Shown here in pieces: positions 15,043-63,988 of a stretch of 64,000 nt of DNA. The position numbers and the translations under genes are program-made. How positions within the stretch are numbered: the stretch's first letter is position 1; every line of letters begins with the position of its first letter. Below the pieces are notes generated by a model that saw only the letters and a program-made list of their open reading frames with translations, did no database searches and was not told where the DNA came from. The stretch is from an uncultured Gammaproteobacteria bacterium (lineage in GTDB: Bacteria; Patescibacteriota; Microgenomatia; CAZETR01; Amesbacteraceae). The stretch covers positions 14,894 to 78,893 of the forward strand of contig CAYHGA010000002.1 in the NCBI GenBank assembly GCA_964356225.1. Reading direction: 5' to 3'.

Positions 15043-15684
15043 TTAGACAGCTCCTTTGCCGGATAACATGACAAAAGGAGTTTTAAACAATATTTTTAGA
15101 TCATAACATAGATTCATGTTCTCGGCATAATGCGAATCCATTTCTATGCGCTTATCAAAATTAATATCGCTTCTGCCGGATACTTGCCATTGGCCGGTAA
15201 TCCCAGGGCGGACAGAGAGAGCTTTTTTTACCAGCTCCTTGGTGTGGGGATATTTTTTCTGCTGTTCTTCAAGTTCGTCTGAAAAATAGGGTCTAGGACC
15301 AATAAGGCTCATATCTCCCCAAAATACGTTGACTAATTGAGGTACTTCATCGAGCGAAAATTTACGGATAAATTTTCCCACTCTGGTCACCCGGGGATCG
15401 GAATTTAACTTGTAGCTGCTTTTTTTATATTCCTCGTAGAGTTTTTTGAATTTGGGATCGGTGCGAAGTTTGAGGTGAGCGTCGGGAATCATAGAACGGA
15501 ACTTGTGCAAATGAAAAAGCCTGCCATGCTTGCCTACACGGTTGGGAATATCGGCAAAAACGGGGCCTTGCGAAGACTCGAGTTTGATGGCTAGAGCGAC
15601 CAGGAGACTTATAGGGAAAAACAGGGTCCCCAAAAATATGGCAAGAAAAATGTCCATTATCCGTTTGAGGGTTTCGTATTTCAT
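15043..15684 (-). CDS. Initiating polyprenyl-phosphate sugar-1-phosphate transferase (small monotopic PglC/WbaP-C-terminal type)
   Basis: 213 aa with a single N-terminal re-entrant helix. PGITGQWQVSGRSDI is the hallmark PGITG motif of PF02397. DEVPQL and GPRP motifs are also present. Confidence 0.85.
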   Translation of the reverse strand: MKYETLKRIMDIFLAIFLGTLFFPISLLVALAIKLESSQGPVFADIPNRVGKHGRLFHLHKFRSMIPDAHLKLRTDPKFKKLYEEYKKSSYKLNSDPRVTRVGKFIRKFSLDEVPQLVNVFWGDMSLIGPRPYFSDELEEQQKKYPHTKELVKKALSVRPGITGQWQVSGRSDINFDKRIEMDSHYAENMNLCYDLKILFKTPFVMLSGKGAV

Positions 15685-15687
15685 GGA

Positions 15688-16845
15688 TTACAGGTATTTT
15701 AGCAGTTTTTGCTCTTTGAGCATTCCATGCAGCTGTTTAACAGACTGGGCGTCATTTTTGGGGCAAATGAGAATTGCATCTGGCGTATCGATTACCACCA
15801 TGTCCGAAAGGCCGACTAAGGAAATAAGCTGTTTGTCTAAAACAAAAAGATTGTTTCGGGAATTGAGACCAACTAGTTCACCTTGCCCACGACTACCAAT
15901 AACCGCATTGCCAGCGGAGTCTTTGGGTAGATTTTGCCAAACTATGTTCCAATCCCCTACGTCAGACCAAGTGAAATGGCCAAGAATACAAATAAAATTG
16001 GTAACTTTTTCGGAGACGGCATAATCTACGGAAATGCTGGGGGCCATTTGGAAAGCCAGTTGAATAGTTTCTTTTTCTTTACCAGTACCAATATCATCTA
16101 TTATTTTGGGTAGAAAAGCATACGATTTGGGAGCGAACTTTTTGAGAAGATCCAAATATAGCTTAGCTTTCCAAACGTACAAATTGGCATTCCACAGATA
16201 ATCTCCCGACGCGGTAAATTTCATGGCCAAATCCAAGGAGGGCTTTTCAACAAACTTCAGACCAATGTTACCCTTAAATTTAATGTGCCCCATTCCAGTA
16301 TGAGGAAATTTTGGTTTAATACCCACAGTGACGAATTTATTTTCCCAGGCGTAGAAAACAGCCTTTTTAATGTCACTCACAAAACCTGTGACTGGAGTGA
16401 TGAGATGGTCAGAGGCTAAATTTACAATTACGGCTTCAGGGTCCTGGAGATAAATGTAGGCGGCTCCTAAACCATGAGCAATGGCTGTATCTTTACGCTG
16501 GGGTTCAGCAATAATATTTTCGCTTTTTACTTTGGGACATTGTTTTTTTATTTCAGCCACATATTTTGCTGACGTAGAGATGTAAATCTGATTGGGAGGA
16601 GTTAATTTTAAAGCTCTATCAACTGTAAGCTGGAGGAGAGATTGTCCACTAAATAGTTTTATAAATTGTTTAGGAGAGTTTTCCCGGGAGAGAGGCCAAA
16701 GACGGGTGCCGCCGCCGCCAGCCAGAATAAGAACGTACAAGTGCTTGCTTAAATTCTCTTTGGAATCGGTCTTTGGCAAACTTTTGGGCATGTGACTTGA
16801 TGAATTCCCGGTCGAATTGAGCGGGATCAAAGTTAAGAATAGCAT
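15688..16845 (-). CDS. manC: Mannose-1-phosphate guanylyltransferase-like sugar nucleotidyltransferase. The likely start is the internal Met near 16791.
   Basis: HLYVLILAGGGGTRLWPLSRENSPKQF is the NDP-sugar pyrophosphorylase G-loop, and the ManC-type C-terminal half is present. The annotated 5' end overlaps the upstream GT4 by 176 nt. Confidence 0.75.
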   Translation of the reverse strand: MLFLTLIPLNSTGNSSSHMPKSLPKTDSKENLSKHLYVLILAGGGGTRLWPLSRENSPKQFIKLFSGQSLLQLTVDRALKLTPPNQIYISTSAKYVAEIKKQCPKVKSENIIAEPQRKDTAIAHGLGAAYIYLQDPEAVIVNLASDHLITPVTGFVSDIKKAVFYAWENKFVTVGIKPKFPHTGMGHIKFKGNIGLKFVEKPSLDLAMKFTASGDYLWNANLYVWKAKLYLDLLKKFAPKSYAFLPKIIDDIGTGKEKETIQLAFQMAPSISVDYAVSEKVTNFICILGHFTWSDVGDWNIVWQNLPKDSAGNAVIGSRGQGELVGLNSRNNLFVLDKQLISLVGLSDMVVIDTPDAILICPKNDAQSVKQLHGMLKEQKLLKYL

Positions 16846-17887
16846 TTTTTAGGTCGGCAACGCTATCTAAGAGCAATCCCGTTTGGCCATGAATTACGGT
16901 TTCTGCGACTCCCCCTTTGTTTATGCCGATAACAGGAGTGCCGGCGGCGTGGGCTTCCAACGGCACTAATCCAAAATCTTCTTCGTGGATAAATAAAACC
17001 GCCCGGGCGTGCTGATAATATGAAATTAAATCTGCTTCGGCCAAATGGCCGAGGAAATGAATGTTGGGATTGGCTGCGGCTTTAAGTTTATTTTCTAAAT
17101 TCCCCGTTCCAATTATAGCCAGGGGCAATTTTAAATCGTTAAAAATTTCTACCAAAACGTCTGCTTGTTTGTAGGCCACTAAACGGCCAACGTATAAAAA
17201 GAAGTTATTAGTTATTAGTTTATGGTTCATAGTAACCGGTTGACTGAAAGAATCCACCTCTACCGGAGGATAAATAACTTGAGAATCCTGACCGTAATAT
17301 TTTTTAATACGATCTTTGACTGTCCGGGAAATGGCAATGTAGGCATCGGGGCGATGGGAAGCGATGAGATCCCAGCGCTTTAAATAATTAAACAGGGGAT
17401 GAAATAGAGGAGACGTTTGGGATTTATAAAAATCTTCGTGACTCCATAAATAGCGGGTAGGAGTGAGACAATAACAAAGGTTAAAAGTGTGGGGCTTAGT
17501 AATAATGCCCTTGGCGTCGGCGGAAGTAACCGAAATGACAATATCGTAATCGTCAAACTTTAAGGTTTCAAAAACGATGGGAGTGAGCCAGGGGTAGAGC
17601 TCATGATTGGATTTGGCCAAGGGGAATTTTTGCAAGAAAGAAGGGATTACGGCGGGAAAAATCTGAGCCCAAGGAGCCCGCTCTTGGTCATAAACGGCGG
17701 TGTACAGCGGAGCATCGGGAAACATTTCATGCAGGACCAGAAGCACTCTCTCCGCCCCGCCCCACTTATTCACCCGGTCGTAAACTAACGCAACGCGGCT
17801 TGGTAAATCTGCCATGTTTGGCTGGCCATGAAGGCCCAGGAGTATTTGGTAACTTGCGATTGGCCTTTGACTATTAGCTTTTGGCAT
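16670..17887 (-). CDS. Glycosyltransferase family 4 (GT-B)
   Basis: 405 aa. The C-terminal domain with GLVPLEAHAAGTPVIGINKGGVAETVIHGQTGLL matches the Glycos_transf_1 E-x7-E region. Confidence 0.75.
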   Translation of the reverse strand: MPKANSQRPIASYQILLGLHGQPNMADLPSRVALVYDRVNKWGGAERVLLVLHEMFPDAPLYTAVYDQERAPWAQIFPAVIPSFLQKFPLAKSNHELYPWLTPIVFETLKFDDYDIVISVTSADAKGIITKPHTFNLCYCLTPTRYLWSHEDFYKSQTSPLFHPLFNYLKRWDLIASHRPDAYIAISRTVKDRIKKYYGQDSQVIYPPVEVDSFSQPVTMNHKLITNNFFLYVGRLVAYKQADVLVEIFNDLKLPLAIIGTGNLENKLKAAANPNIHFLGHLAEADLISYYQHARAVLFIHEEDFGLVPLEAHAAGTPVIGINKGGVAETVIHGQTGLLLDSVADLKNAILNFDPAQFDREFIKSHAQKFAKDRFQREFKQALVRSYSGWRRRHPSLASLPGKLS

Positions 17888-18846
17888 AGTTTTTTATCGA
17901 TGAGTAGGCTCTGGATTTTGTCTGCCAAATCTACTGGGTCGTGAGGATCAAAAAAAAGGGCGGCGTCGCCGTAGATTTCCGGCAGGCAGGAGGCCCGGGC
18001 GGCAATGACTGGCAAACCGGCGGCCATTGCTTCTAACCCCGGCAGGCCAAAACCTTCTATTAATGAGGGAAAAACAAAGGCAAGGGCTCTATGATATAGG
18101 TCAACCAGTTGCTCATCTGTGAGCCGGCCTAAGTATTGTACGCGGGAAGAGATGGGCAGGCGTTTCTCAAAGACTGACCTGGCGCAGACAACCTTTAGGT
18201 CTATTTTAGCCAGCTCTACTGCTCTAATTAACACGGGGATGTTTTTATGCGGGTATAGATTCCCTGTGTAAACTATGAAAGGCTTCGGGATGCTCTTAAA
18301 AGGAGACTCCTTAAAAGAGTCTCCTGTAAATGGTTTGGTTACGCCCTCGTAGGTGACGGAGATTTTAGCTGGGTTGAGATGATATTTTTTTACTAATATA
18401 CTTTTCCAGTATTTGGCAGGGACGATAATATGCCGGGCCCGATGCACAGCCAGCCAGACAATGGCTAAATAACCAAAATATTTCGGCCAATAAAAAATGG
18501 GATTATGAGTAGTGGTGTCCCGGCCTTTGGACATGTGTTTGATCAGGTCGTGGATAGTGACCACCATTTTGCCGGGCCAGAAAACGGGGATGGTAAAGTG
18601 GGGCACGTGCAGAACGTCGGGTCTGATAAAAGATAATATCCACAGCATTTCCAGTTGGGAGAGGAGTGAGTAGGGGTGGAAACGGGCGTAATATTTGGTG
18701 AACTTGGCCAGTTTGAGCTCGTTTTTGAGGTCCGGGGGGACGATTAAAACTGCTTCACCCGGCAAATTATCAATCAAATTCTCTACATATCTGCCGATTC
18801 CGGTATGCTTAATCCCCCACATTCTGGCATCAATACAAATTTTCAT
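17785..18846 (-). CDS. Glycosyltransferase family 4 (GT-B)
   Basis: 353 aa. GFGLPGLEAMAAGLPVIAARASCLPEIYGDAALFFDP is a typical GT4 C-domain. Confidence 0.75.
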   Translation of the reverse strand: MKICIDARMWGIKHTGIGRYVENLIDNLPGEAVLIVPPDLKNELKLAKFTKYYARFHPYSLLSQLEMLWILSFIRPDVLHVPHFTIPVFWPGKMVVTIHDLIKHMSKGRDTTTHNPIFYWPKYFGYLAIVWLAVHRARHIIVPAKYWKSILVKKYHLNPAKISVTYEGVTKPFTGDSFKESPFKSIPKPFIVYTGNLYPHKNIPVLIRAVELAKIDLKVVCARSVFEKRLPISSRVQYLGRLTDEQLVDLYHRALAFVFPSLIEGFGLPGLEAMAAGLPVIAARASCLPEIYGDAALFFDPHDPVDLADKIQSLLIDKKLCQKLIVKGQSQVTKYSWAFMASQTWQIYQAALR

Positions 18847-18849
18847 AAT

Positions 18850-19683
18850 TTACTTAATTGATCTAATTAATCTCATTGATCTAATTATCCAAATACCAAC
18901 GTCGACAGTCCAGTTTATGAAGAAGGGGTATTTAGCGGCCAGGTGCTTAGTGTAAAAAAGGCGCATGGCGTCTGTTGAATTGATGGCCCAGCGGCGGCGG
19001 CCGGAGGCAATGGCCCGGACTGACGACCCTTTAAAATGAGTTATTTTGACGCCGGGAATATATACAACTTTCCAACCTTTTTCTTTTAATTTGTAGCAAA
19101 AATCTATATCTTCGCCGTTAAATTTATAATCTTCGTCCAGCCAACCGACCTGGTCTCCGGCGGTTTTGCGAATCATGGCGAAAGCGCCAACGAGAGAATC
19201 TATTTCATGAATTGAATTGGGGATTTTTTGGTTTGTGTAGGCTGATAAGTGTTTTAGTCCAATGATATGCAAAAAAGAACCTACCGGATCGGGAAAATTG
19301 CGATGGCAGGAGTAATCGAGTGAACCGTCCGGCAATTCCACCCGGCAGGTAGCTGCGCCAATGTCAGGGTGATCCTGCATATATTCGAGGACTGTTTCAA
19401 TGGTTTTAGGATAAACGATGGTGTCCGGATTAAGGAGGAGAATGAATTCTCCTTGCGAGTGGCTAATACCGACGTTGTTTCCGGCCGCAAAGCCGAGATT
19501 AGTATTGTTTTGGATAGTGGCGATCTGGGCGCTGCCGTCCGTGGAGCCGTTGTCGGGAATTATTATTTCCCAATCTTTATGTTTGGGAATAGAAGCCAGA
19601 CAGTCAAGAAGCTGTTTCTTGACGTTATAGCTAAGAATGATGATGGACAAGGTCTTCATATATGCTCTCCAGTTTTTGGGCAA
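18850..19683 (-). CDS. Glycosyltransferase family 2 (GT-A)
   Basis: 277 aa. LSIIILSYNVKKQLLDCLASI...IIPDNGSTDGS is the GT2 N-terminal motif, and DxD-type aspartates follow. Confidence 0.75.
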   Translation of the reverse strand: MPKNWRAYMKTLSIIILSYNVKKQLLDCLASIPKHKDWEIIIPDNGSTDGSAQIATIQNNTNLGFAAGNNVGISHSQGEFILLLNPDTIVYPKTIETVLEYMQDHPDIGAATCRVELPDGSLDYSCHRNFPDPVGSFLHIIGLKHLSAYTNQKIPNSIHEIDSLVGAFAMIRKTAGDQVGWLDEDYKFNGEDIDFCYKLKEKGWKVVYIPGVKITHFKGSSVRAIASGRRRWAINSTDAMRLFYTKHLAAKYPFFINWTVDVGIWIIRSMRLIRSIK

Positions 19684-20830
19684 TGGGTTCCCAGGAAAAG
19701 TTGGTGTCTACCAAATGCCTGGCATTGTTGGCAATTTGGGTATACATCTTTTTGTTTTGTAAAACCCGGATAGATTTATTAGCAATGTCTTCCGGAGTGG
19801 TGCCGATAATAATTGATTCGCCGTCGACCGCCCCATACCCTTCGGCCCCAACGGGGGTAGTAACGACCGGGATCATGGTCGCCATGGCCGCCAGTATTTT
19901 CAGTCTGGTGCCCCCCGGGGCGTACATAGGAGCCACAAACAAACCTGATTCAAGATAAGCATTGACTACTCCCTGGGTGTCGGAGTCTTTGAGCTCTAAA
20001 ATCTCTACGCCTGGTGTTTTGAGAGCTTTGACTTCAGAGGTAGGGAATTGACCGGCGATAATCAGCGAGGCTGTGGGGATAGCTTTCTGTATGAGGGGAA
20101 AGACTTTCCTGGCCAAAAGCTCGGCCGCTTCCCAATTCTGGATCCATTTGTAATTACCCATATACAAAATACGGTGATTATAGTGAGGTTTTTTGGGTAA
20201 ATTGCTGACGTCCTCCCCTACTCCGTTGGGAACAACGTCAACTTTCAGGCCGGGGATTATTTTTTGAATAACCCGGGCATCTTCGGCGGAAACTGTGACT
20301 ACCCGGCTGACCCGCCTCCAGAAATATTGTTCCCAAAAGCGCATTTTGGCTACATCAATCCACATAAACGGGCGGAACCACAGCCGTTTGTCGGTGTTGG
20401 CTTGATGGCCAAAAATCCGGGACATAATGGTTTGTTCGACCAGAATAATGGGGAGGTTATGAGCCGGTAAATAGGGCAAGGTGTACGACATTTCTGCGTG
20501 AATCAAATCGTATTGGCCGCTTTGCAATTCTTCCTGGAGCACCTGTTTTATTTTGGGAGAATAATAAATGGAAACGAGAAAAGGGTAGGGAGAGAAACCG
20601 GTGCGCAGAATGTTGGCTAGAGTCCAGGTTTTCCCCCGCTCAATGACGATGACTTTGCGGCAAAACTGCTTCATATGACTGATTTGTTCCTGGGTATTAT
20701 GCTGGCGGGAGAAACAGACTAGGGTAATAGTGTGTTTTCTGGATAACAGCTTGATAAGTTTGTAGGAACGGACTTGGCCGCCCTCTGACGGAGGATAGGG
20801 CAAATACGGCAAAAGCATGAGGATGTTCAT
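19631..20830 (-). CDS. Glycosyltransferase family 4 (GT-B)
   Basis: 399 aa. MNILMLLPYLPYPPSEGGQVRSYKL is the GT4 N-domain start. The C-domain contains GTRLKILAAMATMIPVVTTPVGAEGY. Confidence 0.7.
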   Translation of the reverse strand: MNILMLLPYLPYPPSEGGQVRSYKLIKLLSRKHTITLVCFSRQHNTQEQISHMKQFCRKVIVIERGKTWTLANILRTGFSPYPFLVSIYYSPKIKQVLQEELQSGQYDLIHAEMSYTLPYLPAHNLPIILVEQTIMSRIFGHQANTDKRLWFRPFMWIDVAKMRFWEQYFWRRVSRVVTVSAEDARVIQKIIPGLKVDVVPNGVGEDVSNLPKKPHYNHRILYMGNYKWIQNWEAAELLARKVFPLIQKAIPTASLIIAGQFPTSEVKALKTPGVEILELKDSDTQGVVNAYLESGLFVAPMYAPGGTRLKILAAMATMIPVVTTPVGAEGYGAVDGESIIIGTTPEDIANKSIRVLQNKKMYTQIANNARHLVDTNFSWEPIAQKLESIYEDLVHHHS

Positions 20831-31984: not shown

Positions 31985-31991
31985 TTCTGAA

Positions 31992-35244: not shown

Positions 35245-35381
35245 ACTCCAATTACAAAAAGGACTATGAATATATAGTTAGCTAGCTGATCAGCTCGGCT
35301 GTAATGGCCGGTTAAAAGCAGCCCCGCTTCGATGAGCATGGCGACCCAAAGTACGATTAATAATGCATTTTTACTTGGCAT
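35226..35381 (-). CDS. Small two-helix membrane ORF (51 aa) coupled to the 844-aa GT-C gene. It is not in the ORF track.
   Basis: Manual translation gives MPSKNALLIVLWVAMLIEAGLLLTGHYSRADQLANYIFIVLFVIGVWRLIR. The start overlaps the stop of the upstream gene, and its TGA overlaps the ATG of the 844-aa gene. It resembles the 44-aa ORF at 46396-46530. Confidence 0.4.
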   Translation of the reverse strand: MPSKNALLIVLWVAMLIEAGLLLTGHYSRADQLANYIFIVLFVIGVWRLIR

Positions 35382-37373: not shown

Positions 37374-37388
37374 CGGGTTGATTCTACC

Positions 37389-38168: not shown

Positions 38169-38169
38169 G

Positions 38170-46391: not shown

Positions 46392-46395
46392 TTTA

Positions 46396-46530: not shown

Positions 46531-46532
46531 AT

Positions 46533-51246: not shown

Positions 51247-51266
51247 GCAGGTTTGATTTTAACTCT

Positions 51267-53501: not shown

Positions 53502-53504
53502 TGA

Positions 53505-57173: not shown

Positions 57174-58215
57174 GAGCGATCAATGTTGATAATTTGCTCG
57201 GATTGAACAACAGAAGAATAATCAGTAGATCGGTAATCAAAAGGTTAACCACCGGCTCATATAAACCCACCCAGTCTCTGTGTTTGACTGATTTATATAT
57301 GCCCACAAATACGGAAGGGATTATCAAATTGACGTAGACTATCCATATGAATATTTTGAACAGATTTCTTTTGAGATCAATCCAAGTATAGAGATTATTT
57401 TGAAGATGAGAAAAATATACTTTAGTGAGATTATATTTTCGTTTACGGAGTAACTCTTTTAAGCTTGTTACGTGATGGTGATACAGGACGGCTTGAGGAA
57501 CAAAGGCAAATTGTTGATGACCATGAAGCACTAAAAGCTTTAAAAAATCCAATTCTAGAAACATCTCAAAGTTTTTGGTTAACTCCCATAATTGTTTACG
57601 TCTATATAGGCACCGCCCGGATGGCGGGATTCTATCGGTTTCATATTTGCATAAAAAATAACTAGTAAGAGATTTAATAATCGTTGATTCAACTGATGGA
57701 GTAAGCCATTGATATAATCCGTCCCGTTGGAGAACGTCAAAAGATAAATATCGTTCGATAGGAGCAGAATTCGGACCAGCTCCTTCTTTGGTAAAGCTAG
57801 CAACTATTCTAATATCTTGTTCCAAAGGAGTAACTAGTTGTTTAAAAAAATCTTTACTTATTAGTTCTACGTCTGCATCCAGATACATGAAGTACTTACC
57901 CGTTGCCGCCCTAAATCCGATCATTTTACCGATTTCACCGTGTTTTTGGCCGTTTCGTAAAAGCAGTACTGGATATTTTTTGGCAATTTTTAAGGTGTGA
58001 TCTGTAGAATCATCATCTACTACCAATACTTCTAATTTGTCTTTAGGATAATCCTGACCAAAAATTGAGTCTAAACATTTCTTGATATTTTTTCCCTCGT
58101 TAAAGGTTGGGGCAACGACTGAGATTTTTGGCCAGATCATTTTTCTAAATATTTTGTAAACAACAGTCCTTTTGCAAAGGTGTAAGCATAACTTAAATGT
58201 GATAAATAAATGCAC
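57163..58215 (-). CDS. GT2 glycosyltransferase with C-terminal transmembrane helices (GtrB/DPM1-like)
   Basis: 350 aa. ISVVAPTFNEGKNIKKCLDSI...LEVLVVDDDSTDHT...YLDADVEL, plus two C-terminal helices. Confidence 0.7.
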   Translation of the reverse strand: MHLFITFKLCLHLCKRTVVYKIFRKMIWPKISVVAPTFNEGKNIKKCLDSIFGQDYPKDKLEVLVVDDDSTDHTLKIAKKYPVLLLRNGQKHGEIGKMIGFRAATGKYFMYLDADVELISKDFFKQLVTPLEQDIRIVASFTKEGAGPNSAPIERYLSFDVLQRDGLYQWLTPSVESTIIKSLTSYFLCKYETDRIPPSGRCLYRRKQLWELTKNFEMFLELDFLKLLVLHGHQQFAFVPQAVLYHHHVTSLKELLRKRKYNLTKVYFSHLQNNLYTWIDLKRNLFKIFIWIVYVNLIIPSVFVGIYKSVKHRDWVGLYEPVVNLLITDLLIILLLFNPSKLSTLIAHEK

Positions 58216-59144
58216 AAAGGTAGAATTAGGGCGACTTTCCAGTCAGCTATTCTTAAGGCATCGATCATGCCAATTATGTATAAAATGATTCCCAACATTA
58301 ATACCTGCGGAAAAACGATTGAGGTTAACATTAAAATTATGGTTATAATAATGCCAAGTAAGGGCATGAAGTAACTGGGACGAAGTGATGTTTGGGGATA
58401 TTTTTTAACAAAATATCCTCTGTGCAGACCCACATTGCCAACTTGGGCTAGATATCCTTCTGGAAAATGTCTCCGGTGGTGGTAAACCACTATTTCGGGA
58501 TGGTATAAAATTTTTTTCCCGGAATTAATTAGTTTGAGACATAAAGCAGTATCTTCACCTCCGTAAAATTTATTGCCGAAGCCGCCGATGGAGAGTAAGT
58601 CTTTACGTTTAGCTATTAAGTTATATGCGGGGTAGTCGTCTACCAGCCGGGGTGACTTCTGAATAAATCTGTAGGCATATGGACCCGTGCCCCAAAAGGT
58701 GGAGAGAATGGCTCCAGTGATTTGCTGGCGGAATCCGTCCATGGGGGGAGTTAAACCAGGACCGCCAATGGCGGAAATATCGGGGTGTTGATTAAATATT
58801 TTTATTGCTTGCTTGAGCCAATCCCGCCGGGGGTAAGAATCATCGTCTAAAAAGGCTATATATTCAGCTTTTGATTTAATGATACCAATGTCTCTTTTTT
58901 CAGCCGGACCAGTGCGCGACTGTCCCGTTTCCAAAACACGTATCCGAGGGTTTTTGAAATTTAGCTTCACTCCCTTATCTACTCCTATTAGAATTTCAAA
59001 ATTAGGATATTCCAATTGTAAAGATTGAGCTACTGCTTCATAAAAATATGCTGTTTCTTTATAGAGAGCAATGATAATTGAAATTTTGGGGTATTTTTTC
59101 ATATGTGTGTTATTTTTTTTGAACTTGATAAAATTTGTTTCCAA
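58137..59144 (-). CDS. GT2 glycosyltransferase with C-terminal transmembrane helices
   Basis: 335 aa. ISIIIALYKETAYFYEAVAQSL...FLDDDSYP (DxD); hydrophobic C-terminal 90 aa. Confidence 0.7.
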   Translation of the reverse strand: METNFIKFKKNNTHMKKYPKISIIIALYKETAYFYEAVAQSLQLEYPNFEILIGVDKGVKLNFKNPRIRVLETGQSRTGPAEKRDIGIIKSKAEYIAFLDDDSYPRRDWLKQAIKIFNQHPDISAIGGPGLTPPMDGFRQQITGAILSTFWGTGPYAYRFIQKSPRLVDDYPAYNLIAKRKDLLSIGGFGNKFYGGEDTALCLKLINSGKKILYHPEIVVYHHRRHFPEGYLAQVGNVGLHRGYFVKKYPQTSLRPSYFMPLLGIIITIILMLTSIVFPQVLMLGIILYIIGMIDALRIADWKVALILPLCIYLSHLSYAYTFAKGLLFTKYLEK

Positions 59145-60220
59145 TTGTATCTTCGACTCATTCTCGATGTGTTGCCAGCTAATATCATATATTCTTTATT
59201 ACCAAAATATTTTAAGAAAAGCGTGGCAATTTGTCTGTCATCGTCAAATAATAATCCTGTCTCATCATTTACTATCAGTTCGTCCATACTACTCCCCTTT
59301 TTGGCAATCGTTGGAGTACCAGAAGCGGCTGCTTCCAAAACTGTTAATCCAAATCCTTCCTTAAATGACGAGTGAATTAAAAAATGAGATTTGGCATATA
59401 GAGTGTTTCGTTGTTGATCAGAAACTTTCCCAAGAAACTCTACATTTTTTTGTAAATGGTTTGAGTTCACATAATCTTTAAGTTCCTGAACATAGCCTAA
59501 ATCTCCATCTCCAACTACAAATAATTTAAATTTTGGAAGATTTTTTGATATCTCTCTGGCGGCTCTAAGTGCAGACTCAATACCCTTCATTTTAACAAGC
59601 CTGGCTACGAATAAGGCTGATGGGAAATTAAACTTTGTGGCGGGCTTAAATTTTGATATATCAATTCCCAAAGGAATAATTTTTATTTTCAAATTTGGGT
59701 TTATTTTGAGGATGTCTCTTTTTGTACTTTCTGATATCGCCCAAATTTCGCAGTTTCGATAAACAAGATATACGATTCTTTCTAGAAATTTTCCTATGTG
59801 GTTAATTGGAAAGGGATACATTTTGTCCCAAATTGTACCCGCGACCTCACATACCCATAATACTTTTCGGCCTCTTGCGTAGAGAGGTGAAAATAAAGGT
59901 AGTCCATGAATTGCGTCCACAACTAAGTCGATTTTTTTGTTTCTGATAATTCCCCAACCGATCCAGATGTTATTTAATAAAAATATTGGGTAGGTAAGAA
60001 GCATGGTTAATGTGTTGTAAAACTTCAATTCTGGGCCAACTCTATGAATGGTTAATCCGTGCGTACTTTCGTCTATAGGTAAGTTTCCATAACGGCTCCC
60101 TAACCAAAAAACTTTGTGTCCGGCATCAGTCCAATGTGTGACATATTTCAACATCACTTGCTCTGCTCCTCCACTCCTGGGATTGGACGGATCCCGCCAC
60201 GACAAAATCAAAATGTTCAT
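59099..60220 (-). CDS. Glycosyltransferase family 4 (GT-B)
   Basis: 373 aa. MNILILSWRDPSNPRSGGAEQV (N-domain) ... GFGLTVLEAAASGTPTIAKKGSSMDELIVNDETGLLFDD. Confidence 0.75.
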   Translation of the reverse strand: MNILILSWRDPSNPRSGGAEQVMLKYVTHWTDAGHKVFWLGSRYGNLPIDESTHGLTIHRVGPELKFYNTLTMLLTYPIFLLNNIWIGWGIIRNKKIDLVVDAIHGLPLFSPLYARGRKVLWVCEVAGTIWDKMYPFPINHIGKFLERIVYLVYRNCEIWAISESTKRDILKINPNLKIKIIPLGIDISKFKPATKFNFPSALFVARLVKMKGIESALRAAREISKNLPKFKLFVVGDGDLGYVQELKDYVNSNHLQKNVEFLGKVSDQQRNTLYAKSHFLIHSSFKEGFGLTVLEAAASGTPTIAKKGSSMDELIVNDETGLLFDDDRQIATLFLKYFGNKEYMILAGNTSRMSRRYNWKQILSSSKKITHI

Positions 60221-60224
60221 GAAG

Positions 60225-61994
60225 CTATTTTACTACTTTCCAAATTTGAACGACAGCGTTCTCAAATATTTTCTCGATACCATAATCGCCGGGAGAAAAT
60301 CTCAACAGTTCGGCTGTATGCGCGTATTTACTTACATAAATATAACCGGCACCTGTAGATTTTACTTTGGCTTTCAGCCCGTCCTGGGATTTTGCGGCAA
60401 AAACCCCGCTGTTATAAATTATGGCTTTTCCGGAATATTTCTGAACATAGTTTCTGGCGTTGGCAAAGGCTGCCGGACGGTATTTGCCAAAATACTCGCA
60501 CTGCAAACATTCGCTGTCATAGACCAGCACTTTACCTGGCGGTAATTGCCTCAACTTATCTAATCCAATAATTTCTTCCGGAGAAATCCAATATTTTTCT
60601 TTTTTGAATTTATCCCAATCGAAAGAAATAACAGCCCTGATGAGACTTTTGGGGGCCTTGAGTAAGTGTTTTGTGGTCAGGCCCCAGTCGCTAAAAACGA
60701 TCCCGTCTTGTAAATTTTCTGTTCCAGTATTTAATTCTATCCGCCAATTATTGTTAATTTTGGTGATTTTAATTAATTTTGACTTGAAAAATTCTTTAGG
60801 AGGTTTGTTTATTGATTCAAAATACTTGGGCATGGTTTTGATATTTAGATCAGTGATTTTCCAAACTTCAGAAGGATTTTGGATAGAATCAATTAAAGAC
60901 GGAATGTTGATGCGCAAGTCTTTTTCCCGGTTTGGCCAGAGATAATATGGCTCACGCAAATTCGGCGGATAGACTCTGAAATCAATAATTTTACCGTTTG
61001 TCTGGTCTATGCCCAATCGGTAAAAAGGCGATTGATACCAAATCATGCCGTCAAAATTAATCTTTTGTTCAGGCGATATATTAGAAAATTTATCTGTGTA
61101 CCATTTGGCAAAGTCTTTCATGGTCATTTTGGCTGCGGTTTTTTGGGCTATAGTCTGCATTTGTTTAGCATATTCGCCTTGGTAAGCGTCAGGGCTAAAA
61201 TCGCTTTCCAAGCCTACAGTAACTTGAGAAAATAGATCGGTAAGCTGGGAGAAATAATTGATAGCAAGCTTTGGAGTGGTGAAATAGTCCTGGGTGCTGT
61301 ATAGACTGTTGTAGTAACCCCGGCGGGGCTCGCGCGGAGCCCACTGGAAAGTGATTACTCCTATTTTATTGTCTGGGCTGGCCGCCGGAATACCGGCATG
61401 AAGTTTACTGGGGTAATACGGGGTAGACCAATAAGTACCCCATACCTGATAATTATCAGTCGAGTACTGATCCGCCACTCCCAAATTGGCAATGATCCCG
61501 TATTTGTCGCGCATATACTGCAGCGAGAAACTCTCCACCCACCAGGCCCCAACGGAAACCGGGTAGTAATCAAACTGCTCTTTAAACTTAGCAAACACCG
61601 TATCTATAAACTTGATTCTTTCTTCTTGGGTGTAACCCGATAAAAAAACGGCGTTGGCAAAATGCCAAGAACCGGTGTTGTGATACGAGACTCCCGCAGC
61701 TTTACTAAATTCAGGAGTAATCTCCAAGAAAATTCCGAGTTCTTGACTGGATGAAAATTTTTTAAATTCGGTGACTATTTCTGGTTGATTCAGTACATCG
61801 TAAGTCAGTAACCAAGTTGCTGGTAACTGATATTGGGAAATGATGCTGTGCTGAGCCCGAAGGCTAGCTAAATGGTTGATATTGTATTGAGAAATCCGAA
61901 CTGGATTAACAACTGTAATAAATTGATCGGAGGCCAGGACTGGTGAAGTTATAGAAAAAAAAGCAAGAACTAATAACAAGATTAATTTATCCAT
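60225..61994 (-). CDS. Secreted hypothetical protein (possible glycan-processing enzyme)
   Basis: 589 aa with a cleavable-looking signal peptide (MDKLILLLVLAFFSITSPVLA). Rich in aromatic residues. No family recognised. Confidence 0.4.
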   Translation of the reverse strand: MDKLILLLVLAFFSITSPVLASDQFITVVNPVRISQYNINHLASLRAQHSIISQYQLPATWLLTYDVLNQPEIVTEFKKFSSSQELGIFLEITPEFSKAAGVSYHNTGSWHFANAVFLSGYTQEERIKFIDTVFAKFKEQFDYYPVSVGAWWVESFSLQYMRDKYGIIANLGVADQYSTDNYQVWGTYWSTPYYPSKLHAGIPAASPDNKIGVITFQWAPREPRRGYYNSLYSTQDYFTTPKLAINYFSQLTDLFSQVTVGLESDFSPDAYQGEYAKQMQTIAQKTAAKMTMKDFAKWYTDKFSNISPEQKINFDGMIWYQSPFYRLGIDQTNGKIIDFRVYPPNLREPYYLWPNREKDLRINIPSLIDSIQNPSEVWKITDLNIKTMPKYFESINKPPKEFFKSKLIKITKINNNWRIELNTGTENLQDGIVFSDWGLTTKHLLKAPKSLIRAVISFDWDKFKKEKYWISPEEIIGLDKLRQLPPGKVLVYDSECLQCEYFGKYRPAAFANARNYVQKYSGKAIIYNSGVFAAKSQDGLKAKVKSTGAGYIYVSKYAHTAELLRFSPGDYGIEKIFENAVVQIWKVVK

Positions 61995-62787
61995 CTAGGT
62001 ATGTGTCGGGGAGCCAGTTTTTGCGATTGGAGTCGTCGTAATAGTGAAGAATTTTTAGTCTGTAGAAAACGGCAGCTGAATCCCAAGCCATGTTGAAAGC
62101 GGTTTTGATAAAACCCGTGTTGAATATGGAAGAGGTATGTAGAAATTTCATGGAAAGTTTAACAGGGGCTTCGTATATCTTTGTGAAACCCAAACAATGG
62201 GCTACTGCAAGAATTTCTATATCAAAAGCAAACTTTTTTACGAGAAGCCGAGGAAGAACTGCTTTAATCAGTTCTTTTCTGTAGAGCTTCATGCCTACCT
62301 GAGTATCTCGAACATTTAATCCAAATAACAATTTAACGCCTATCTGGTACCCCCACGACAAAATCTTTCTTTGCCAAGGATAAGTAACCTGGGAAACTGG
62401 ATGGCGCTTTGAAGCTATAATGGCATCTGCTTTGTACCAGTTAAAATGTTCCAGCATCATGGGAATCATGCCGTAATCCAACTCTCCTGAGTCTACAAAG
62501 CCGATTATACGTCCAGTGGAATGAGCCATGCCGTATCGGACGGCAAATCCCTTGCCAGAATTATTTGGGTATCCTATTACTTTAATATTGTTAGTGGAAA
62601 TGGATTTAGTTTTTTCAAAAGTTTTGTCTAAAAATCCATCAACTACACAAATAATTTCATATGGTTTATTGAGACTTTTAAGCACTGTTTCAAGCCGGTG
62701 AAGGGTTTTGATTATGGTTTTTTCCTGCTTATATGCCGGGACAATAATAGAAATATAGGGGTCATTCAAAGTTTTGGCGGGTGGCAT
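61987..62787 (-). CDS. GT2 polyprenyl-phosphate glycosyltransferase (DPM1-like)
   Basis: 266 aa. ISIIVPAYKQEKTIIKTLHRLETVL...IICVVDGFLDKT...GKGFAVRYGMAHSTGRIIGFVDSGELDY. Confidence 0.7.
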   Translation of the reverse strand: MPPAKTLNDPYISIIVPAYKQEKTIIKTLHRLETVLKSLNKPYEIICVVDGFLDKTFEKTKSISTNNIKVIGYPNNSGKGFAVRYGMAHSTGRIIGFVDSGELDYGMIPMMLEHFNWYKADAIIASKRHPVSQVTYPWQRKILSWGYQIGVKLLFGLNVRDTQVGMKLYRKELIKAVLPRLLVKKFAFDIEILAVAHCLGFTKIYEAPVKLSMKFLHTSSIFNTGFIKTAFNMAWDSAAVFYRLKILHYYDDSNRKNWLPDTYLDG

Positions 62788-63988
62788 AGAAACTATAAAT
62801 TATTAAAACTGCCGCAAGTATACCAAAAACAACACTTAAAGAGAAAACCACTTGAGTCAAATTGGCATGAAAGAAATAAATCCCTGCAGCTTCTAACCCC
62901 AGTCCTATAAGTGAAATCCAAGCTGCCTTAATTTTGTTTAAGGCTAATAGAAATCCTGCGCAGGTATTGGCTAACGAATAGCCTAAAATAGCTAACCCCA
63001 TCCAGGCTATTAAAGGAGCAGCCGCTATAAATTTGCTTGAAAAAACGGATGTTATTAATACCTGGGCAGTCAAATGATAGAAACCCACTATTAAAGCCCC
63101 TATTGTTCCCGACACTCCTAATAGTAACCATAAATCACTTCTGGCGCGTCCGGGGTGATGAGATTTTCGAGCCACAACTGGAACCATCGCCGACCCGAGA
63201 GGTGCTTGGGCAAAATATACTACTTTGCCAGCAGTAACAAGAACCGCATAAATTCCTGTCCAATAATCATTAAAGAAATGTTTAACCAGCAAAATATCTA
63301 TCGAGTACATTAGAGTATAGGAAAGCGACAATAACAACCCCCCAAGCCCTAAAGATTTAATAGGCCATTTATGGTGCTCAAATTTGCTGGTTGGCACTTT
63401 AAATATCTCGCGGGCTTGAAATAAATTAATGAACAGAACAACTATTGAGGCTAAAATGACTCCAACCAGCCCCCATCCATACCACTGCGAAATTGAATAA
63501 ACCAGGACTACTGAAAAAATAAGCCTAATTGCCATTTCCACTATTTGATTTGAGACAAGAGCTGTAAACCTAAACCATGCTTTCAGAACTGAACGTAAAA
63601 CTGTAATTATCAATGACAAATAAATAAATACCCAGATTGTGACTACTGGTCCTACTTCCGGGAGATTTAAAAAATGCTGCACGGATTTGGAAAAGAGCAA
63701 TAAGACCGGCAGCATAAACAACGATATTAAGCCTACGCGTTGACCCAGATAAACCAGCAAGCCACGGGTATGAGAAATCATCTTGCCAGGTTCAAAGCTA
63801 GATATTAGTTTCGTTACCAGGAAGTCTAAGGCATTCATCGGCACTCCTACTACATACAGCAAACCGAAGAGTGCTGCTAGAATGCCATATTGTTGTGGCC
63901 CTAATAGCCGAGCCAAAACGAAGTGATAGGCAAAGGCTAGGCCACTAACTACGACGTTTCCAATTAAAAAAATAGAGGTACCTCTCAA
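62762..63988 (-). CDS. Wzx/MurJ-like polysaccharide flippase (MOP superfamily)
   Basis: 408 aa, about 12 transmembrane helices. N-terminus VVVSGLAFAYHFVLARLLGPQQYGILAALFGLLYVVGVPMNALDFLVTKLIS is typical of Polysacc_synt. Confidence 0.55.
   Translation of the reverse strand: MRGTSIFLIGNVVVSGLAFAYHFVLARLLGPQQYGILAALFGLLYVVGVPMNALDFLVTKLISSFEPGKMISHTRGLLVYLGQRVGLISLFMLPVLLLFSKSVQHFLNLPEVGPVVTIWVFIYLSLIITVLRSVLKAWFRFTALVSNQIVEMAIRLIFSVVLVYSISQWYGWGLVGVILASIVVLFINLFQAREIFKVPTSKFEHHKWPIKSLGLGGLLLSLSYTLMYSIDILLVKHFFNDYWTGIYAVLVTAGKVVYFAQAPLGSAMVPVVARKSHHPGRARSDLWLLLGVSGTIGALIVGFYHLTAQVLITSVFSSKFIAAAPLIAWMGLAILGYSLANTCAGFLLALNKIKAAWISLIGLGLEAAGIYFFHANLTQVVFSLSVVFGILAAVLIIYSFYATRQNFE

Follow-up and report, generated by a model that had tools for sequence, protein, structure and literature searches.

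The mycobacterial and corynebacterial arabinan pathway comprises the decaprenyl-phosphate 5-phosphoribosyltransferase (DPPRS) Rv3806c, the phosphatase Rv3807c, DprE1/DprE2, the flippase Rv3789, EmbA/B/C, and AftA-D (AftD, PDB 6W98). The mycobacterial AftD protein has 16 transmembrane (TM) helices, consisting of the 11 helices of its glycosyltransferase fold C (GT-C), TM12, and TM13-16, with soluble domains in between; TM13-16 form a four-helix bundle that binds acyl carrier protein (ACP) and is needed for function. The AftD structure paper reported homologs only across Actinobacteria (bioRxiv 10.1101/2019.12.22.885152). In the three-component pentofuranose systems, a polyprenyl-phosphate phosphoribosyltransferase (PPPRS) with a HAD phosphatase domain makes polyprenyl-P-ribose-5-P from phosphoribosyl pyrophosphate (PRPP), the phosphatase removes the phosphate, a MATE flippase exports the lipid-linked pentofuranose, and a GT136 GT-C transfers it, with optional epimerases that change the sugar (Kelly et al. 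2024; PMC11127046). The Gram-positive transmembrane glycosylation systems consist of a GtrB/CsbB-type glycosyltransferase of family 2 (GT2), a small flippase, and a GT-C such as YfhO (PMC8035078). Here, we describe a gene cluster in a stretch of 64,000 nt from contig CAYHGA010000002.1, referred to below as the window, which has features in common with each of these systems and with the Wzx/Wzy loci for O-antigens, capsules, and exopolysaccharides (EPS). We consider it probable, with some reserve, that this is a single conserved cluster for the production of a cell-surface glycoconjugate in a groundwater bacterium of the Candidate Phyla Radiation (CPR), which would be assembled according to a two-layer scheme.

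The cluster begins at position 15043 and runs to the end of the window. L008, a metagenomic contig of the same population, overlaps the window by 2762 nt at 100% identity and continues for 8267 nt past position 64000 (L008 positions 1-9506 correspond to window coordinates of about 64000-72270). Past the edge, L008 encodes the full 421-aa Wzx protein, a PIG-V-type GT-C (Mannosyl_trans2), a GT4, a GT2, and three tandem PMT_2-type GT-Cs, each with the first-loop motif [WA]-D-E-[AV]-x-L-G-Y-N-A-Y-S-L, followed by a partial polytopic open reading frame (ORF); one GT-C in this part matches Pfam PMT and, weakly, STT3. Because this identical contig extends past the edge, the cluster is at least 57 kb long, 49 kb of which are in the window, and contains at least 12 GT-C genes. 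The partial polytopic ORF stands at the very end of L008, and the cluster length is thus a lower bound.

Every ORF of the locus was searched against Pfam and NCBIfam, and TM helices were predicted. A total of 42 ORFs were counted at positions 15043-63988, of which 38 are located on the minus strand; taken at maximal length they span 99.3% of this stretch, and the largest intergenic gaps are 126 and 141 nt. Glycan-synthesis families were assigned to 38 of the 42 ORFs by Pfam/NCBIfam matches, profile searches, and structure models. These correspond to 1 PglC-type initiating transferase, 1 ManC, 7 GT4, 10 GT2, 2 Wzx, 1 Wzy_C protein, 1 acetyltransferase, 6 methyltransferases, 1 UbiA enzyme, and 8 polytopic GT-C proteins. 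One of the GT2 ORFs contains two GT2 domains and another (27773-28423) scored 21.5 bits against a cutoff of 23.3, giving a total of 17 ORFs and 18 domains for the GT-A/GT-B enzymes. The S-adenosylmethionine (SAM) methyltransferase domains number exactly six, five of which are free-standing while the sixth is fused to a PHP phosphoesterase. The four ORFs without a glycan family encode proteins of 158, 107, 589, and 431 aa, the last of which combines an NTP_transf_5-like with a dTMP-kinase-like P-loop domain. The window contains a single initiating transferase, and the Pfam scans revealed no Wzz, Wzc, or other polysaccharide co-polymerase (PCP), no ABC transporter, and no sugar-nucleotide epimerase or dehydratase among its ORFs.

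Much of this had been anticipated in a sequence-only reading of the window, which proposed a near-contiguous locus of about 49 kb that starts at a PglC-type transferase and a ManC-like gene, consists almost entirely of glycan-related ORFs, has at least 8 GT-C, 2 Wzx, and 6 methyltransferase genes, and lacks Wzz/Wzc, ABC transporter, and sugar-nucleotide epimerase or dehydratase genes. The Pfam and NCBIfam searches agree with all of these points, including the exact Wzx and methyltransferase counts, and all eight GT-Cs were found at the expected places, seven of them firm and one divergent; the gene order is moreover kept in a relative, as described below. The reading had put the GT-A/GT-B enzymes at about 19, close to the 17 ORFs found here, and it had rightly let the locus run to the window edge but missed the continuation of at least 8267 nt. 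It had also given overlaps of 4-40 nt between genes; the minimum of 4 nt stands, whereas the maximal ORFs overlap by up to 176 nt. The larger overlaps probably reflect upstream alternative start codons, an example of an over-long maximal ORF being that of ManC, where the Pfam match begins only at residue 38. The UbiA enzyme, the PHP domain, the NTP_transf_5/P-loop fusion, a DUF4012 gene at the left end, and a conserved small membrane protein had all been overlooked.

Three of the eight polytopic proteins are AftD-family GT-Cs, and one of their genes overlaps by 4 nt with the gene for the small membrane protein.

42867-46391, minus strand: AftD-family GT-C, 1174 aa
46533-49628, minus strand: AftD-family GT-C paralog, 1031 aa
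32710-35244, minus strand: AftD-family GT-C paralog, 844 aa
42547-42870, minus strand: small membrane protein, 107 aa, about four hydrophobic segments, no Pfam/NCBIfam match, 4-nt overlap with the gene for the 1174-aa protein

The assignment to the AftD family was made because homologs match the Pfam family PF11847 (GT-C_AftD, formerly DUF3367), because the structure model matches 6w98, and because the 844-aa protein joins the family profile. A database search with the 1174-aa protein yielded 186 relatives, all named ones of which are from Patescibacteria; many of the 186 carry a precomputed match to PF11847, and one is already named "alpha-(1->3)-arabinofuranosyltransferase family protein". 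PF11847 was matched by 20 of the 26 aligned homologs, which are 25% to 73% identical, with a best E-value of 1.5e-15. The AlphaFold model of the 1174-aa protein, built on this 26-sequence alignment, had a predicted local distance difference test (pLDDT) score of 83.9 and a predicted template modeling (pTM) score of 0.79, and the best match in a Foldseek search against PDB was the mycobacterial AftD 6w98 (E = 2.8e-15), followed by PglB, DPY19, ArnT, and AftA. The 1031-aa and 1174-aa proteins share 41% identity over a stretch of 828 residues, and the former is part of the AftD-like alignment A1. The 844-aa protein aligned with the A1 profile over 501 columns (hhalign, 98.9%, E = 2.6e-17) and showed BLAST similarity to both of the larger proteins, along with a weak match to NCBIfam MmpA.

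The 1174-aa protein contains about 11 N-terminal TM helices, an invariant G-H-D motif, an extracytoplasmic region of about 700 aa, modeled as an alpha/beta domain, a helical bundle, and beta-sandwiches, and a single C-terminal TM helix. Likewise, the 844-aa protein consists of an N-terminal polytopic domain with a G-N-D motif, an extracytoplasmic domain, and a C-terminal TM helix. The proteins thus resemble AftD in that an N-terminal GT-C membrane domain is followed by a very large extracytoplasmic beta-sandwich region and a return into the membrane. They differ from AftD in that the sequence identity is about 10%, in that one C-terminal TM helix replaces TM12 and the ACP-binding bundle while a separate 107-aa membrane protein follows, and in that the ectodomain contains a DUF5667-type helical bundle that is not part of AftD as described. 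This bundle is long (residues ~680-805 of the 1174-aa protein), was recognized as Pfam DUF5667 in 11 of the 26 family members, and yields spurious coiled-coil matches in PDB sequence searches. The G-[HN]-D motif in the first loop is invariant across the AftD-like family members, as are E149, K152, R382, and K387 in the alignment that contains G38-H39-D40. In the Mycobacterium abscessus AftD the essential residues are K39, D41, E251, K361, and D474, and a weak profile alignment to the AftD sequence (E = 0.17) places D40 opposite K39 rather than D41.

To examine how widespread these proteins are, one genome per GTDB species was scanned with patterns derived from the AftD-like alignment, which identified 66 loci; the patterns are subfamily-specific, and the scan could therefore not detect the actinobacterial AftD. 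All 66 loci were found in metagenome-assembled genomes (MAGs) of CPR bacteria, including Woesebacteria, Levybacteria, Daviesbacteria, Roizmanbacteria, Gottesmanbacteria, Dojkabacteria, and Parcubacteria, and many third-party annotation (TPA) records titled "uncultured Gammaproteobacteria". The records with the title "uncultured Gammaproteobacteria bacterium" (L013, L015, L020, and about 30 more) and one titled "archaeon" contain the same CPR-type loci, and these titles are probably placeholders or mislabels. Proteins identical to those of the window are encoded on contigs from 0.2-µm filtrate metagenomes of Hainich groundwater and on a 192-kb NCBI MAG contig.

Within 10 kb, two AftD-like genes were present in 47 of the 66 loci and three in 4. 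The same distance from an AftD-like gene contained a GT-C of the 543-aa type described below in 45 loci, a relative of a 339-aa GT2 in 44, and a Wzy_C protein in 20, while no PglC homolog was found there in any of the 66 loci. A small ORF like that for the 107-aa protein directly follows 47 of 66 full-length AftD-like ORFs, as compared to 14 of 473 control ORFs of at least 300 aa (3%). An iterative search (jackhmmer) that started from the 107-aa ORF retrieved 59 ORFs in 55 of 78 loci, all in one sequence family, and in the AftD-centered loci nearly all of these begin right after the AftD-like gene. The small partner proteins are about 100-130 aa, with equivalents at L004 13515-13829, at L006 13527-13826, and in most of L012-L075. 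The 107-aa partner could be a split-off equivalent of the TM13-16 bundle of AftD or, alternatively, a small flippase for the donor lipid.

The other five polytopic proteins are smaller and have 6-8 predicted TM helices each.

20827-22167, minus strand: GT-C, 446 aa, at least 6 TM helices, PMT_2-like (Pfam PMT_2, 20.5 bits, below the cutoff of 26.1)
26478-27797, minus strand: GT-C, 439 aa, first-loop motif W-L-D-E-A (NCBIfam Agl23 N-terminal region, E = 1.4e-11)
35371-36696, minus strand: divergent GT-C-like protein, 441 aa, P-E replacing D-E (profile comparison)
49615-51246, minus strand: GT-C, 543 aa, invariant Q-D-E-W first loop, small C-terminal alpha/beta domain (AF2 model, Foldseek)
55641-57173, minus strand: GT-C, 510 aa, PMT_2 type, first-loop V-D-E-G-E (Pfam PMT_2, 30.7 bits, cutoff 26.1)

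Sequence searches against PDB were uninformative, so that a comparison of folds was needed. Searches with AftD-like profiles placed AftD at E-values of 0.11 to 0.17 amid coiled-coil noise from the helical ectodomain, profile searches with the 543- and 441-aa families gave nothing useful, and single-sequence searches with the 1174-, 844-, 510-, and 589-aa proteins gave nothing meaningful. Structures were modeled for two of the GT-C candidates, the 1174- and 543-aa proteins, and the 510-, 446-, 439-, and 441-aa proteins were placed by profile links. For the AF2 model of the 543-aa protein (pLDDT 87.5, pTM 0.88), the 19 best Foldseek matches in PDB were all GT-Cs, among them PglB (E = 2.9e-5), STT3, DPY19, Pmt4, and AglB. 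The Q-D-E-W motif after TM1 is invariant in 28 sequences of this family; the 543-aa protein has 81 relatives, a few of which match PMT_2, and the distant ones have a C-terminal discoidin domain.

The profile of the 543-aa family picked up the 510-aa protein with an E-value of 1.7e-31 and the 446-aa protein, in which the acidic residues are D30/D38, with an E-value of 2.6e-18. In jackhmmer searches the 446-aa protein was linked to the three PMT/PMT_2 proteins of L008 (E = 1e-30 to 5e-20) and the 439-aa protein to the PMT_2 proteins of L008 (E = 6e-56 to 2e-44). The 441-aa family is narrow, with 27 proteins and just one distant member that matches PMT_2; in a profile-profile comparison with the 543-aa family it scored 84.9% (E = 6e-6), with FFPYPE aligned to FFQQDEW, and the 441-aa protein had a BLAST match to the 510-aa GT-C (E = 3e-4). 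When the single 543-, 441-, 446-, and 439-aa sequences were compared with the profiles A1 and A2 using hhalign, the probabilities were 0.4-2.7%. Taken together, seven of the eight polytopic proteins are firm GT-Cs, and the 441-aa protein is a probable divergent member.

The GT-C calls of the sequence-only reading were borne out in that both modeled proteins (1174 and 543 aa) fold as GT-Cs and not as transporters, but the membership of three proteins in the AftD family had escaped it. The acidic first-loop motif that it expected was recovered as D40 in the AftD-like family and as Q-D-E-W in the 543-aa family, whereas P-E stands in its place in the 441-aa protein. The suggestion of a surface glycan that is complex, methylated, and partly assembled outside the membrane from lipid-linked donors, with either a polysaccharide or a protein as the possible acceptor, agrees with all of the tests. 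The proposal that assembly proceeds mostly from such donors is an overstatement, with 17 Leloir-type glycosyltransferase ORFs against 8 GT-Cs.

The main argument for a single functional unit is the conservation of gene order across both halves of the cluster. In a relative (L004, L005, and L078) with an AftD-like protein that is 47% identical, the gene order of the window is kept over about 40 kb. The shared order starts with the PMT_2 GT-C, NTP_transf_5, the P-loop kinase, UbiA, the fusion of PHP with a methyltransferase (PHP-MTase), the 543-type GT-C, the AftD pair, and the small ORF. It continues with the double GT2, a GT2, methyltransferases, the 441-type and 844-type proteins, a methyltransferase, a GT2, and an opposite-strand GT2, and then with a GT4, a 214-aa ORF, the 439-type GT-C, two GT4s, and the acetyltransferase. 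As compared to the window, the relative (L004/L078) lacks the first Wzx gene at the matching place and has an extra methyltransferase gene as well as an SDR epimerase gene.

The base composition is uneven, however, with a GC content of 0.469 in the housekeeping genes to the left, 0.449 at 15043-31984, 0.365 at 31992-60220, and 0.40-0.46 at and beyond the right edge, and with GC contents of 0.32-0.39 throughout in relatives that carry the central AftD/UbiA block. Furthermore, the identity to L015 ranges from 46% to 87% gene by gene. The GC drop and the uneven identity suggest lateral exchange or a mosaic, and it could be argued that the cluster consists of independent neighbors, namely a Wzx/Wzy locus at 15-32 kb and a laterally acquired GT-C/UbiA island at 32-60 kb, which make separate products. 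The presence of two Wzx genes is in line with such a division, as is the finding that the AftD pair, the 543-family GT-C, and the small partner are widespread in CPR bacteria without the left-hand genes. Yet, the collinearity with the 47%-identity relative crosses the GC boundary (from the 844-aa gene through a methyltransferase and GT2s to the GT4 and the acetyltransferase), the genes remain packed across this boundary, stops overlapping with starts, a single initiating transferase is present, and the left half also holds GT-C genes (446 and 439 aa). We therefore consider two separate products to be quite improbable and the least likely of the interpretations discussed here.

Downstream of the gene for the 510-aa GT-C in the direction of transcription, and before the AftD pair, is a cassette that may represent a route to a lipid-linked pentofuranose.

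53505-54383, minus strand: UbiA-superfamily protein of a DPPRS-like clade, candidate polyprenyl-phosphate 5-phosphoribosyltransferase (NCBIfam, PDB sequence search)
51960-53501, minus strand: PHP metal-dependent phosphoesterase fused to a zinc-ribbon SAM methyltransferase (Pfam PHP, PHP_C, Methyltransf_23)

The best NCBIfam models for the UbiA protein were three DPPRS models and the HAD-UbiA model PRK08238, the top three of the four being DPPRS. In a search of 177,635 distinct PDB sequences the sole matches were the DPPRS entries 8j8j and 8j8k (E = 7e-12, residues 5-247), and the H-P-x-K-x-x-R-P-I segment aligns with DPPRS. A HMMER search of 1.8 billion representatives retrieved 188 UbiA relatives at E ≤ 1e-30, and all 40 of the nearest relatives that were sampled scored best on the DPPRS and PRK08238 models; some of the sampled relatives are fused to GT2 or methyltransferase domains. 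It was also noted that some relatives in alignment A5 carry N-terminal extensions of about 330 aa. The PHP-MTase protein matched the NCBIfam model for the CehA/McbA metallohydrolase (E = 2e-14), with the H-x-H, D-H, and other PHP metal-ligand motifs intact, and it is a candidate for the 5-phosphatase, and modifier, of the lipid-linked sugar. Its gene adjoins the UbiA gene in all four UbiA-carrying loci (the window, L004, L013, and L015). The UbiA, PHP-MTase, and 510-aa GT-C genes co-occur in L004/L005, L013, and L015, and clear orthologs of the 510-aa GT-C were found only in these UbiA-carrying loci.

These features parallel those of the three-component pentofuranose systems (PMC11127046) in that a DPPRS-like UbiA protein is encoded next to a candidate phosphatase, a GT-C is confined to loci with that pair, MOP-superfamily proteins are present in the cluster as flippase candidates, and the extra SDR epimerase of the relative recalls the auxiliary epimerases. 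They deviate from these systems in having a PHP-methyltransferase fusion instead of HAD, in having Wzx or the 107-aa protein instead of MATE as flippase candidates, and in the location of the cassette within a far larger GT-C-rich cluster instead of an add-on for O-antigen side chains. The SDR epimerase/dehydratase gene and the extra methyltransferase gene are located inside the methyltransferase block (L004 17227-18234 and L078 6273-7280), an accessory difference of the kind that would change the sugar, as do the auxiliary epimerases (PMC11127046), so that the relative might make a different pentose. With the mycobacterial pathway the window shares the clustering of several GT-C genes with genes for donor synthesis, as well as a UbiA protein whose only solved relatives are DPPRS. 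It differs from the mycobacterial pathway in that DprE1/DprE2 are missing in the window, and hence an arabinofuranose route there, in that the phosphoesterase is of the PHP and not the PAP2 type, in that the UbiA motif has N-Q and not N-D, and in the CPR host, in which most AftD-like loci have no UbiA gene nearby. The Pfam/NCBIfam scans of the window identified no HAD PRP domain, PAP2 phosphatase, DprE1/DprE2, or SDR epimerase and no match to MATE or SMR/GtrA, which leaves the two Wzx proteins and the 107-aa protein as flippase candidates. If the route is real, the lack of DprE1/DprE2 and of an epimerase in the window would make ribofuranose, and not arabinofuranose, the expected pentose.

Whether the route is real is close to evenly balanced in our judgment, with the scales tipped slightly to the negative side. 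The UbiA protein could instead be an ordinary lipid or aromatic prenyltransferase, or use another phospho-sugar diphosphate, in which case there would be no pentofuranose pathway and the PHP domain would do something else, such as act as a regulator in the manner of CpsB, a capsule tyrosine phosphatase that belongs to the PHP superfamily. All DPPRS models were matched below the cutoff, the second position of the first Asp-rich motif, D in DPPRS, is taken by Q in the window protein and by E in the wider family, and the HAD PRP, PAP2, and DprE1/E2 partners are missing in the window scans, all of which would agree with such a function. Against it, only DPPRS entries were matched in PDB with the H-P-x-K-x-x-R-P-I segment in register, the 40 sampled relatives scored best on DPPRS/HAD-UbiA rather than on the UbiA, MenA, heme O, or chlorophyll synthase models, the fusions of UbiA relatives to GT2 and methyltransferase domains point to work on glycans, the PHP domain matches general PHP and CehA/McbA models, and the P-loop neighbor is dTMP-kinase-like and not a BY-kinase. 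A function other than that of a phosphoribosyltransferase is unlikely, although it retains a real chance. We also considered the PHP and P-loop domains as a CpsB/CpsD-like pair of phosphatase and tyrosine kinase, a candidate that was rejected since the P-loop domain resembles dTMP kinase/MeaB and not AAA_31/CbiA, while the PHP matches are those to the general and CehA/McbA models. Likewise rejected was UbiA as a general source of donors for the CPR AftD-like enzymes, as it is encoded within 10 kb of them in only 2 of the 66 loci. Because UbiA is missing from most AftD-like loci, these enzymes are probably independent of it, and their donors are more likely to be polyprenyl-P-hexoses from membrane-anchored GT2s.

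The left part of the cluster is of the kind found in Wzx/Wzy loci.

15043-15684, minus strand: small PglC-type polyprenyl-phosphate sugar-1-phosphate transferase, initiating (Pfam Bac_transf, E = 5e-59, 199 bits; NCBIfam EPS_sugtrans/WbaP C-terminal domain, E = 2e-71; one TM helix)
15688-16845, minus strand: ManC-like mannose-1-phosphate guanylyltransferase (Pfam NTP_transferase and ManC_GMP_beta-helix; NCBIfam GMP_PMI, E = 7.5e-78)
16670-17887, minus strand: GT4 (this and the next three: Pfam Glycos_transf_1/Glyco_transf_4 or Glycos_transf_2, all above cutoff)
17785-18846, minus strand: GT4
18850-19683, minus strand: GT2
19631-20830, minus strand: GT4
22164-23399, minus strand: Wzy_C-domain protein, at least 9 TM helices (Pfam Wzy_C, 51.2 bits, cutoff 31.7)
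23392-23868, minus strand: 158-aa protein, N-terminal TM helix by TM prediction, no Pfam/NCBIfam match
23865-24476, minus strand: hexapeptide-repeat acyl/acetyltransferase (Pfam Hexapep, E = 1.4e-15)
24425-25501, minus strand: GT4 (Pfam Glycos_transf_1, E = 4e-36)
25495-26481, minus strand: GT4 (Pfam Glycos_transf_1, E = 3e-21)
27773-28423, minus strand: weak GT2, 216 aa (Pfam, below cutoff as given above)
28386-29339, minus strand: GT4 (Pfam)
29203-29949, plus strand: GT2 (Pfam)
29914-30768, minus strand: GT2 (Pfam)
30716-31984, minus strand: Wzx-type flippase no. 1 of the MOP superfamily, 10 TM helices (Pfam Polysacc_synt, E = 5e-20)
62762-64000, minus strand: Wzx-type flippase no. 2, truncated at the window edge, full length 421 aa (Pfam Polysacc_synt_3)

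Both Wzx ORFs (30716-31984 and 62762-63988) scored above the Pfam cutoff and have 10-11 TM helices. In common with the Wzx/Wzy loci for O-antigen, capsule, or EPS, the cluster has a PglC-type initiator, a gene for sugar-nucleotide supply, many GT2 and GT4 genes packed on one strand, an acetyltransferase, Wzx, and a Wzy_C-domain protein. Unlike these loci, it includes no Wzz/Wzc/PCP, outer-membrane export, or sugar-nucleotide modifying genes in the window, and it extends over at least 57 kb. A dozen or more GT-Cs and 6 methyltransferases far exceed the usual content of a Wzx/Wzy locus.

The Wzy_C domain is common to WaaL ligases and O-oligosaccharyltransferases and cannot tell polymerases from either, and judged from its sequence the product of the gene at 22164-23399 could have any of these three functions. 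This invites the alternative that the cluster serves mainly in protein O-glycosylation, with the Wzy_C protein as an O-oligosaccharyltransferase of the PglL/PilO type that acts on pilins or S-layer proteins, and the PMT_2-like GT-Cs as protein O-mannosyltransferases. In addition to the shared Wzy_C domain, the absence of Wzz/Wzc from the window, the PMT and weak STT3 matches of the GT-C past the edge, and the PMT_2-like nature of several window GT-Cs would be in accordance with this. However, the beta-sandwich ectodomains of about 700 aa resemble those of AftD, which acts on glycans and binds complex arabinans, no acceptor protein could be identified within the window, and about 30 transferases are far above the need of known general O-glycosylation systems. 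We judge protein O-glycosylation as the main purpose to be improbable. It differs from the two-layer scheme solely in the final acceptor, and the two are compatible.

In the right part, the genes between and beyond the GT-C genes encode mostly GT2s and methyltransferases.

31992-32723, minus strand: SAM methyltransferase (Pfam Methyltransf_11, E = 4e-22)
36657-37373, minus strand: GT2 (Pfam Glycos_transf_2, E = 8e-18)
37389-38168, 38170-39114, and 39128-39805, plus strand: tandem triplet of SAM methyltransferases (Pfam Methyltransf_23/11/25)
39808-40827, minus strand: GT2 with one C-terminal TM helix (Pfam, TM prediction)
40818-42554, minus strand: 578-aa protein with two GT2 domains (Pfam)
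51267-51959, minus strand: SAM methyltransferase (Pfam Methyltransf_25/11, E = 1e-20)
54373-55668, minus strand: fusion of NTP_transf_5 nucleotidyltransferase-like and dTMP-kinase-like P-loop domains (weak Pfam/NCBIfam matches)
57163-59144, minus strand: two membrane-anchored GT2s, one of 350 aa with 2 C-terminal TM helices and one of 335 aa with 1 TM helix (Pfam, TM prediction)
59099-60220, minus strand: GT4 (Pfam Glycos_transf_1, E = 1.5e-30)
60225-61994, minus strand: 589-aa protein with an N-terminal signal/anchor helix and a large extracytoplasmic part (TM prediction)
61987-62787, minus strand: GT2 (Pfam Glycos_transf_2, E = 3e-19)

The two GT2s at 57163-59144 have PDB relatives that include the membrane mannosyltransferase 6yv7 and the Dol-P-Man synthase 5mlz; their membrane anchors and this distant similarity make them candidate polyprenyl-phosphate sugar synthases. 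In this respect the cluster resembles the Gram-positive transmembrane glycosylation systems, as membrane-anchored GT2s, a small multi-TM protein, and GT-Cs are encoded together, although the GT2s do not score best on the GtrB/ArnC models, there is no GtrA or YfhO Pfam match, and the GT-C genes outnumber those of such systems by an order of magnitude (PMC8035078). By analogy, the likeness fits a decoration of wall polymers from polyprenyl-P-sugars in a single-membrane bacterium. The plus-strand methyltransferase triplet was also present in the relatives L001, L002, and L004. The halves of the NTP_transf_5/P-loop fusion are separate genes in L004 (1510-2785), the P-loop kinase is fused to a GT4 in the Woesebacteria locus L006 (5812-6807 and 8105-10000), and the pair stays with the AftD-like genes even in loci without UbiA (L014 and L017). 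For the 589-aa protein there was no match in Pfam, NCBIfam, or PDB sequences, and weak relatives were seen in just 2 of the 66 CPR loci.

Positions 1-15033, to the left of the cluster, contain housekeeping genes on the minus strand, among them a reduced division and cell wall (dcw) cluster with FtsA, MurG, FtsW, MraY, a diacylglycerol kinase, a class B penicillin-binding protein (PBP), MraW, and MraZ, as well as genes for a class II tRNA synthetase and RecO. At 1169-10735 there is no murE, murF, murD, or murC gene between the PBP gene and mraY/ftsW; the diacylglycerol kinase gene is placed between those for the PBP and MraY, and genes for an APH-family phosphotransferase and a PCMT methyltransferase sit between ftsW and murG. 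The gene closest to the initiating transferase, with RecO and the housekeeping genes further to the left, is the following.

13105-15033, minus strand: DUF4012 protein with one N-terminal TM helix (Pfam DUF4012, E = 3e-25)

The DUF4012 family is enriched in CPR bacteria and has been found in a capsular polysaccharide (CPS)/EPS cluster of Bifidobacterium (PMC6744442). For these reasons, and because the gene lies 9 nt from that of the initiating transferase, it is probably an auxiliary gene of the locus and its left boundary. The dcw cluster and the DUF4012 gene fit a CPR host. A tRNA scan of the window found none, and hence there is no signature of a tRNA-flanked island. The promoter and terminator counts at 28-47 kb were at the level of shuffled sequences (67 vs. 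56.5 ± 7.7 and 22 vs. 17.1 ± 4.4, respectively), and operon boundaries could not be drawn.

According to the two-layer scheme, a first layer (~15-32 kb, plus the genes at the right end) would start with the PglC-type enzyme, which would initiate the glycan on polyprenyl phosphate. ManC would supply GDP-mannose, other nucleotide sugars being made elsewhere in the genome, and the GT4/GT2 Leloir enzymes and the acetyltransferase would build an oligosaccharide on the cytoplasmic face, to be flipped by Wzx and polymerized, or ligated to an acceptor, by the Wzy_C protein. In a second layer (~32-57 kb and past the edge), GT-Cs would extend and branch the glycan on the outside with polyprenyl-monophosphate sugars, for which the donors would come from membrane-anchored GT2 synthases. 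The enzymes of this layer would be the three AftD-family proteins with their large carbohydrate-binding-type ectodomains, the five PMT_2-like proteins, and the at least four GT-Cs past the edge. A lineage-specific cassette within it may add a pentofuranose: the DPPRS-like UbiA protein would move phosphoribose from PRPP to a lipid, the PHP phosphoesterase would remove the 5-phosphate, and the 510-aa GT-C would transfer the resulting sugar. The six methyltransferases would O-methylate sugars. Whereas the family and fold assignments, motifs, gene order, conservation, co-occurrence, and host lineage are direct observations, the choice of substrates, the sequence of events, and the acceptor, which might be a wall polymer, a lipoglycan, a pilin, or an S-layer protein, are inferred.

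Several observations weigh against this scheme. We know of no glycan chemistry for this organism or for any CPR bacterium. None of the 1174-, 1031-, and 844-aa proteins matches PF11847 directly (E ≤ 0.01), and in both the model and the hydropathy profile of the 1174-aa protein the C-terminal four-helix bundle of AftD is missing, with a single C-terminal helix at residues 1143-1171. The role of the GT2s as donor synthases rests on membrane anchors and distant PDB similarity. The central block has a GC content about 9 points below that of its flanks, and the cluster may be a mosaic rather than an ancient unit. The UbiA protein scored below the DPPRS cutoffs (97.6 vs. 234 bits for NF008977 and 76.5 vs. 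207 bits for NF008978), and a UbiA gene was located within 10 kb of an AftD-like gene in just 2 of the 66 species-level loci, as judged from an iterative search. Moreover, the first Asp-rich motif is N-Q-I-[AT]-D-x-x-x-D in the window protein and three orthologs and N-E-x-x-D-x-x-x-D in the wider family, so that N at the first position and D at the fifth and ninth are kept, while D at the second is not. The corresponding loop II motif of DPPRS/PPPRS is N-D-x-x-D-x-x-x-D, represented by N247, D248, D251, and D255 in ORF15 of C. youngae, where a D-to-A replacement at position 2 nearly abolished activity (PMC11127046).

Every enzyme family identified here is known, whereas the combination, the scale, and the host lineage are new. 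New in this sense is that a very small genome holds at least 12 GT-C genes within one cluster of 57 kb or more. The same applies to the occurrence and spread of AftD-family proteins in 66 species-level CPR genomes, mostly in tandem and accompanied by a 543-type GT-C and a small partner, and, at the level of sequence, to a clade of DPPRS-like UbiA proteins that carry an N-[EQ] motif and are paired with a PHP phosphoesterase instead of HAD or PAP2. No study of these genes came up in a literature search that combined CPR/Patescibacteria with GT-C or arabinofuranosyltransferase, although database annotations already label some of the homologs as DUF3367 or AftD-family. The whole genome of Mycobacterium tuberculosis has a number of GT-Cs about equal to the dozen or more in this cluster, and AftD is an essential enzyme of the tuberculosis cell wall. 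A far-reaching interpretation, which we regard as a long shot, is that CPR bacteria assemble one of their main envelope polymers along the lines of arabinan, a logic thought to be specific to Actinobacteria, with tandem AftD-type polymerases and a small partner that use polyprenyl-phosphate donors, including a PRPP-derived pentofuranose made by the N-[EQ]-x-x-D UbiA clade and a PHP phosphatase. Such a polymer would be a lipid- or wall-anchored, heavily methylated structure with which these ultra-small episymbionts attach to their hosts.

The CPR accounts for a large part of bacterial diversity, and its members, with genomes of around 1 Mb, live for the most part attached to other cells. If true, the proposed cassette would extend the route from PRPP to lipid-linked pentofuranose to a new UbiA clade and a new type of phosphatase, and the shorter AftD relatives without a C-terminal helix bundle offer material for a comparative structural study. 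The cluster provides concrete candidate genes for what CPR surfaces consist of.

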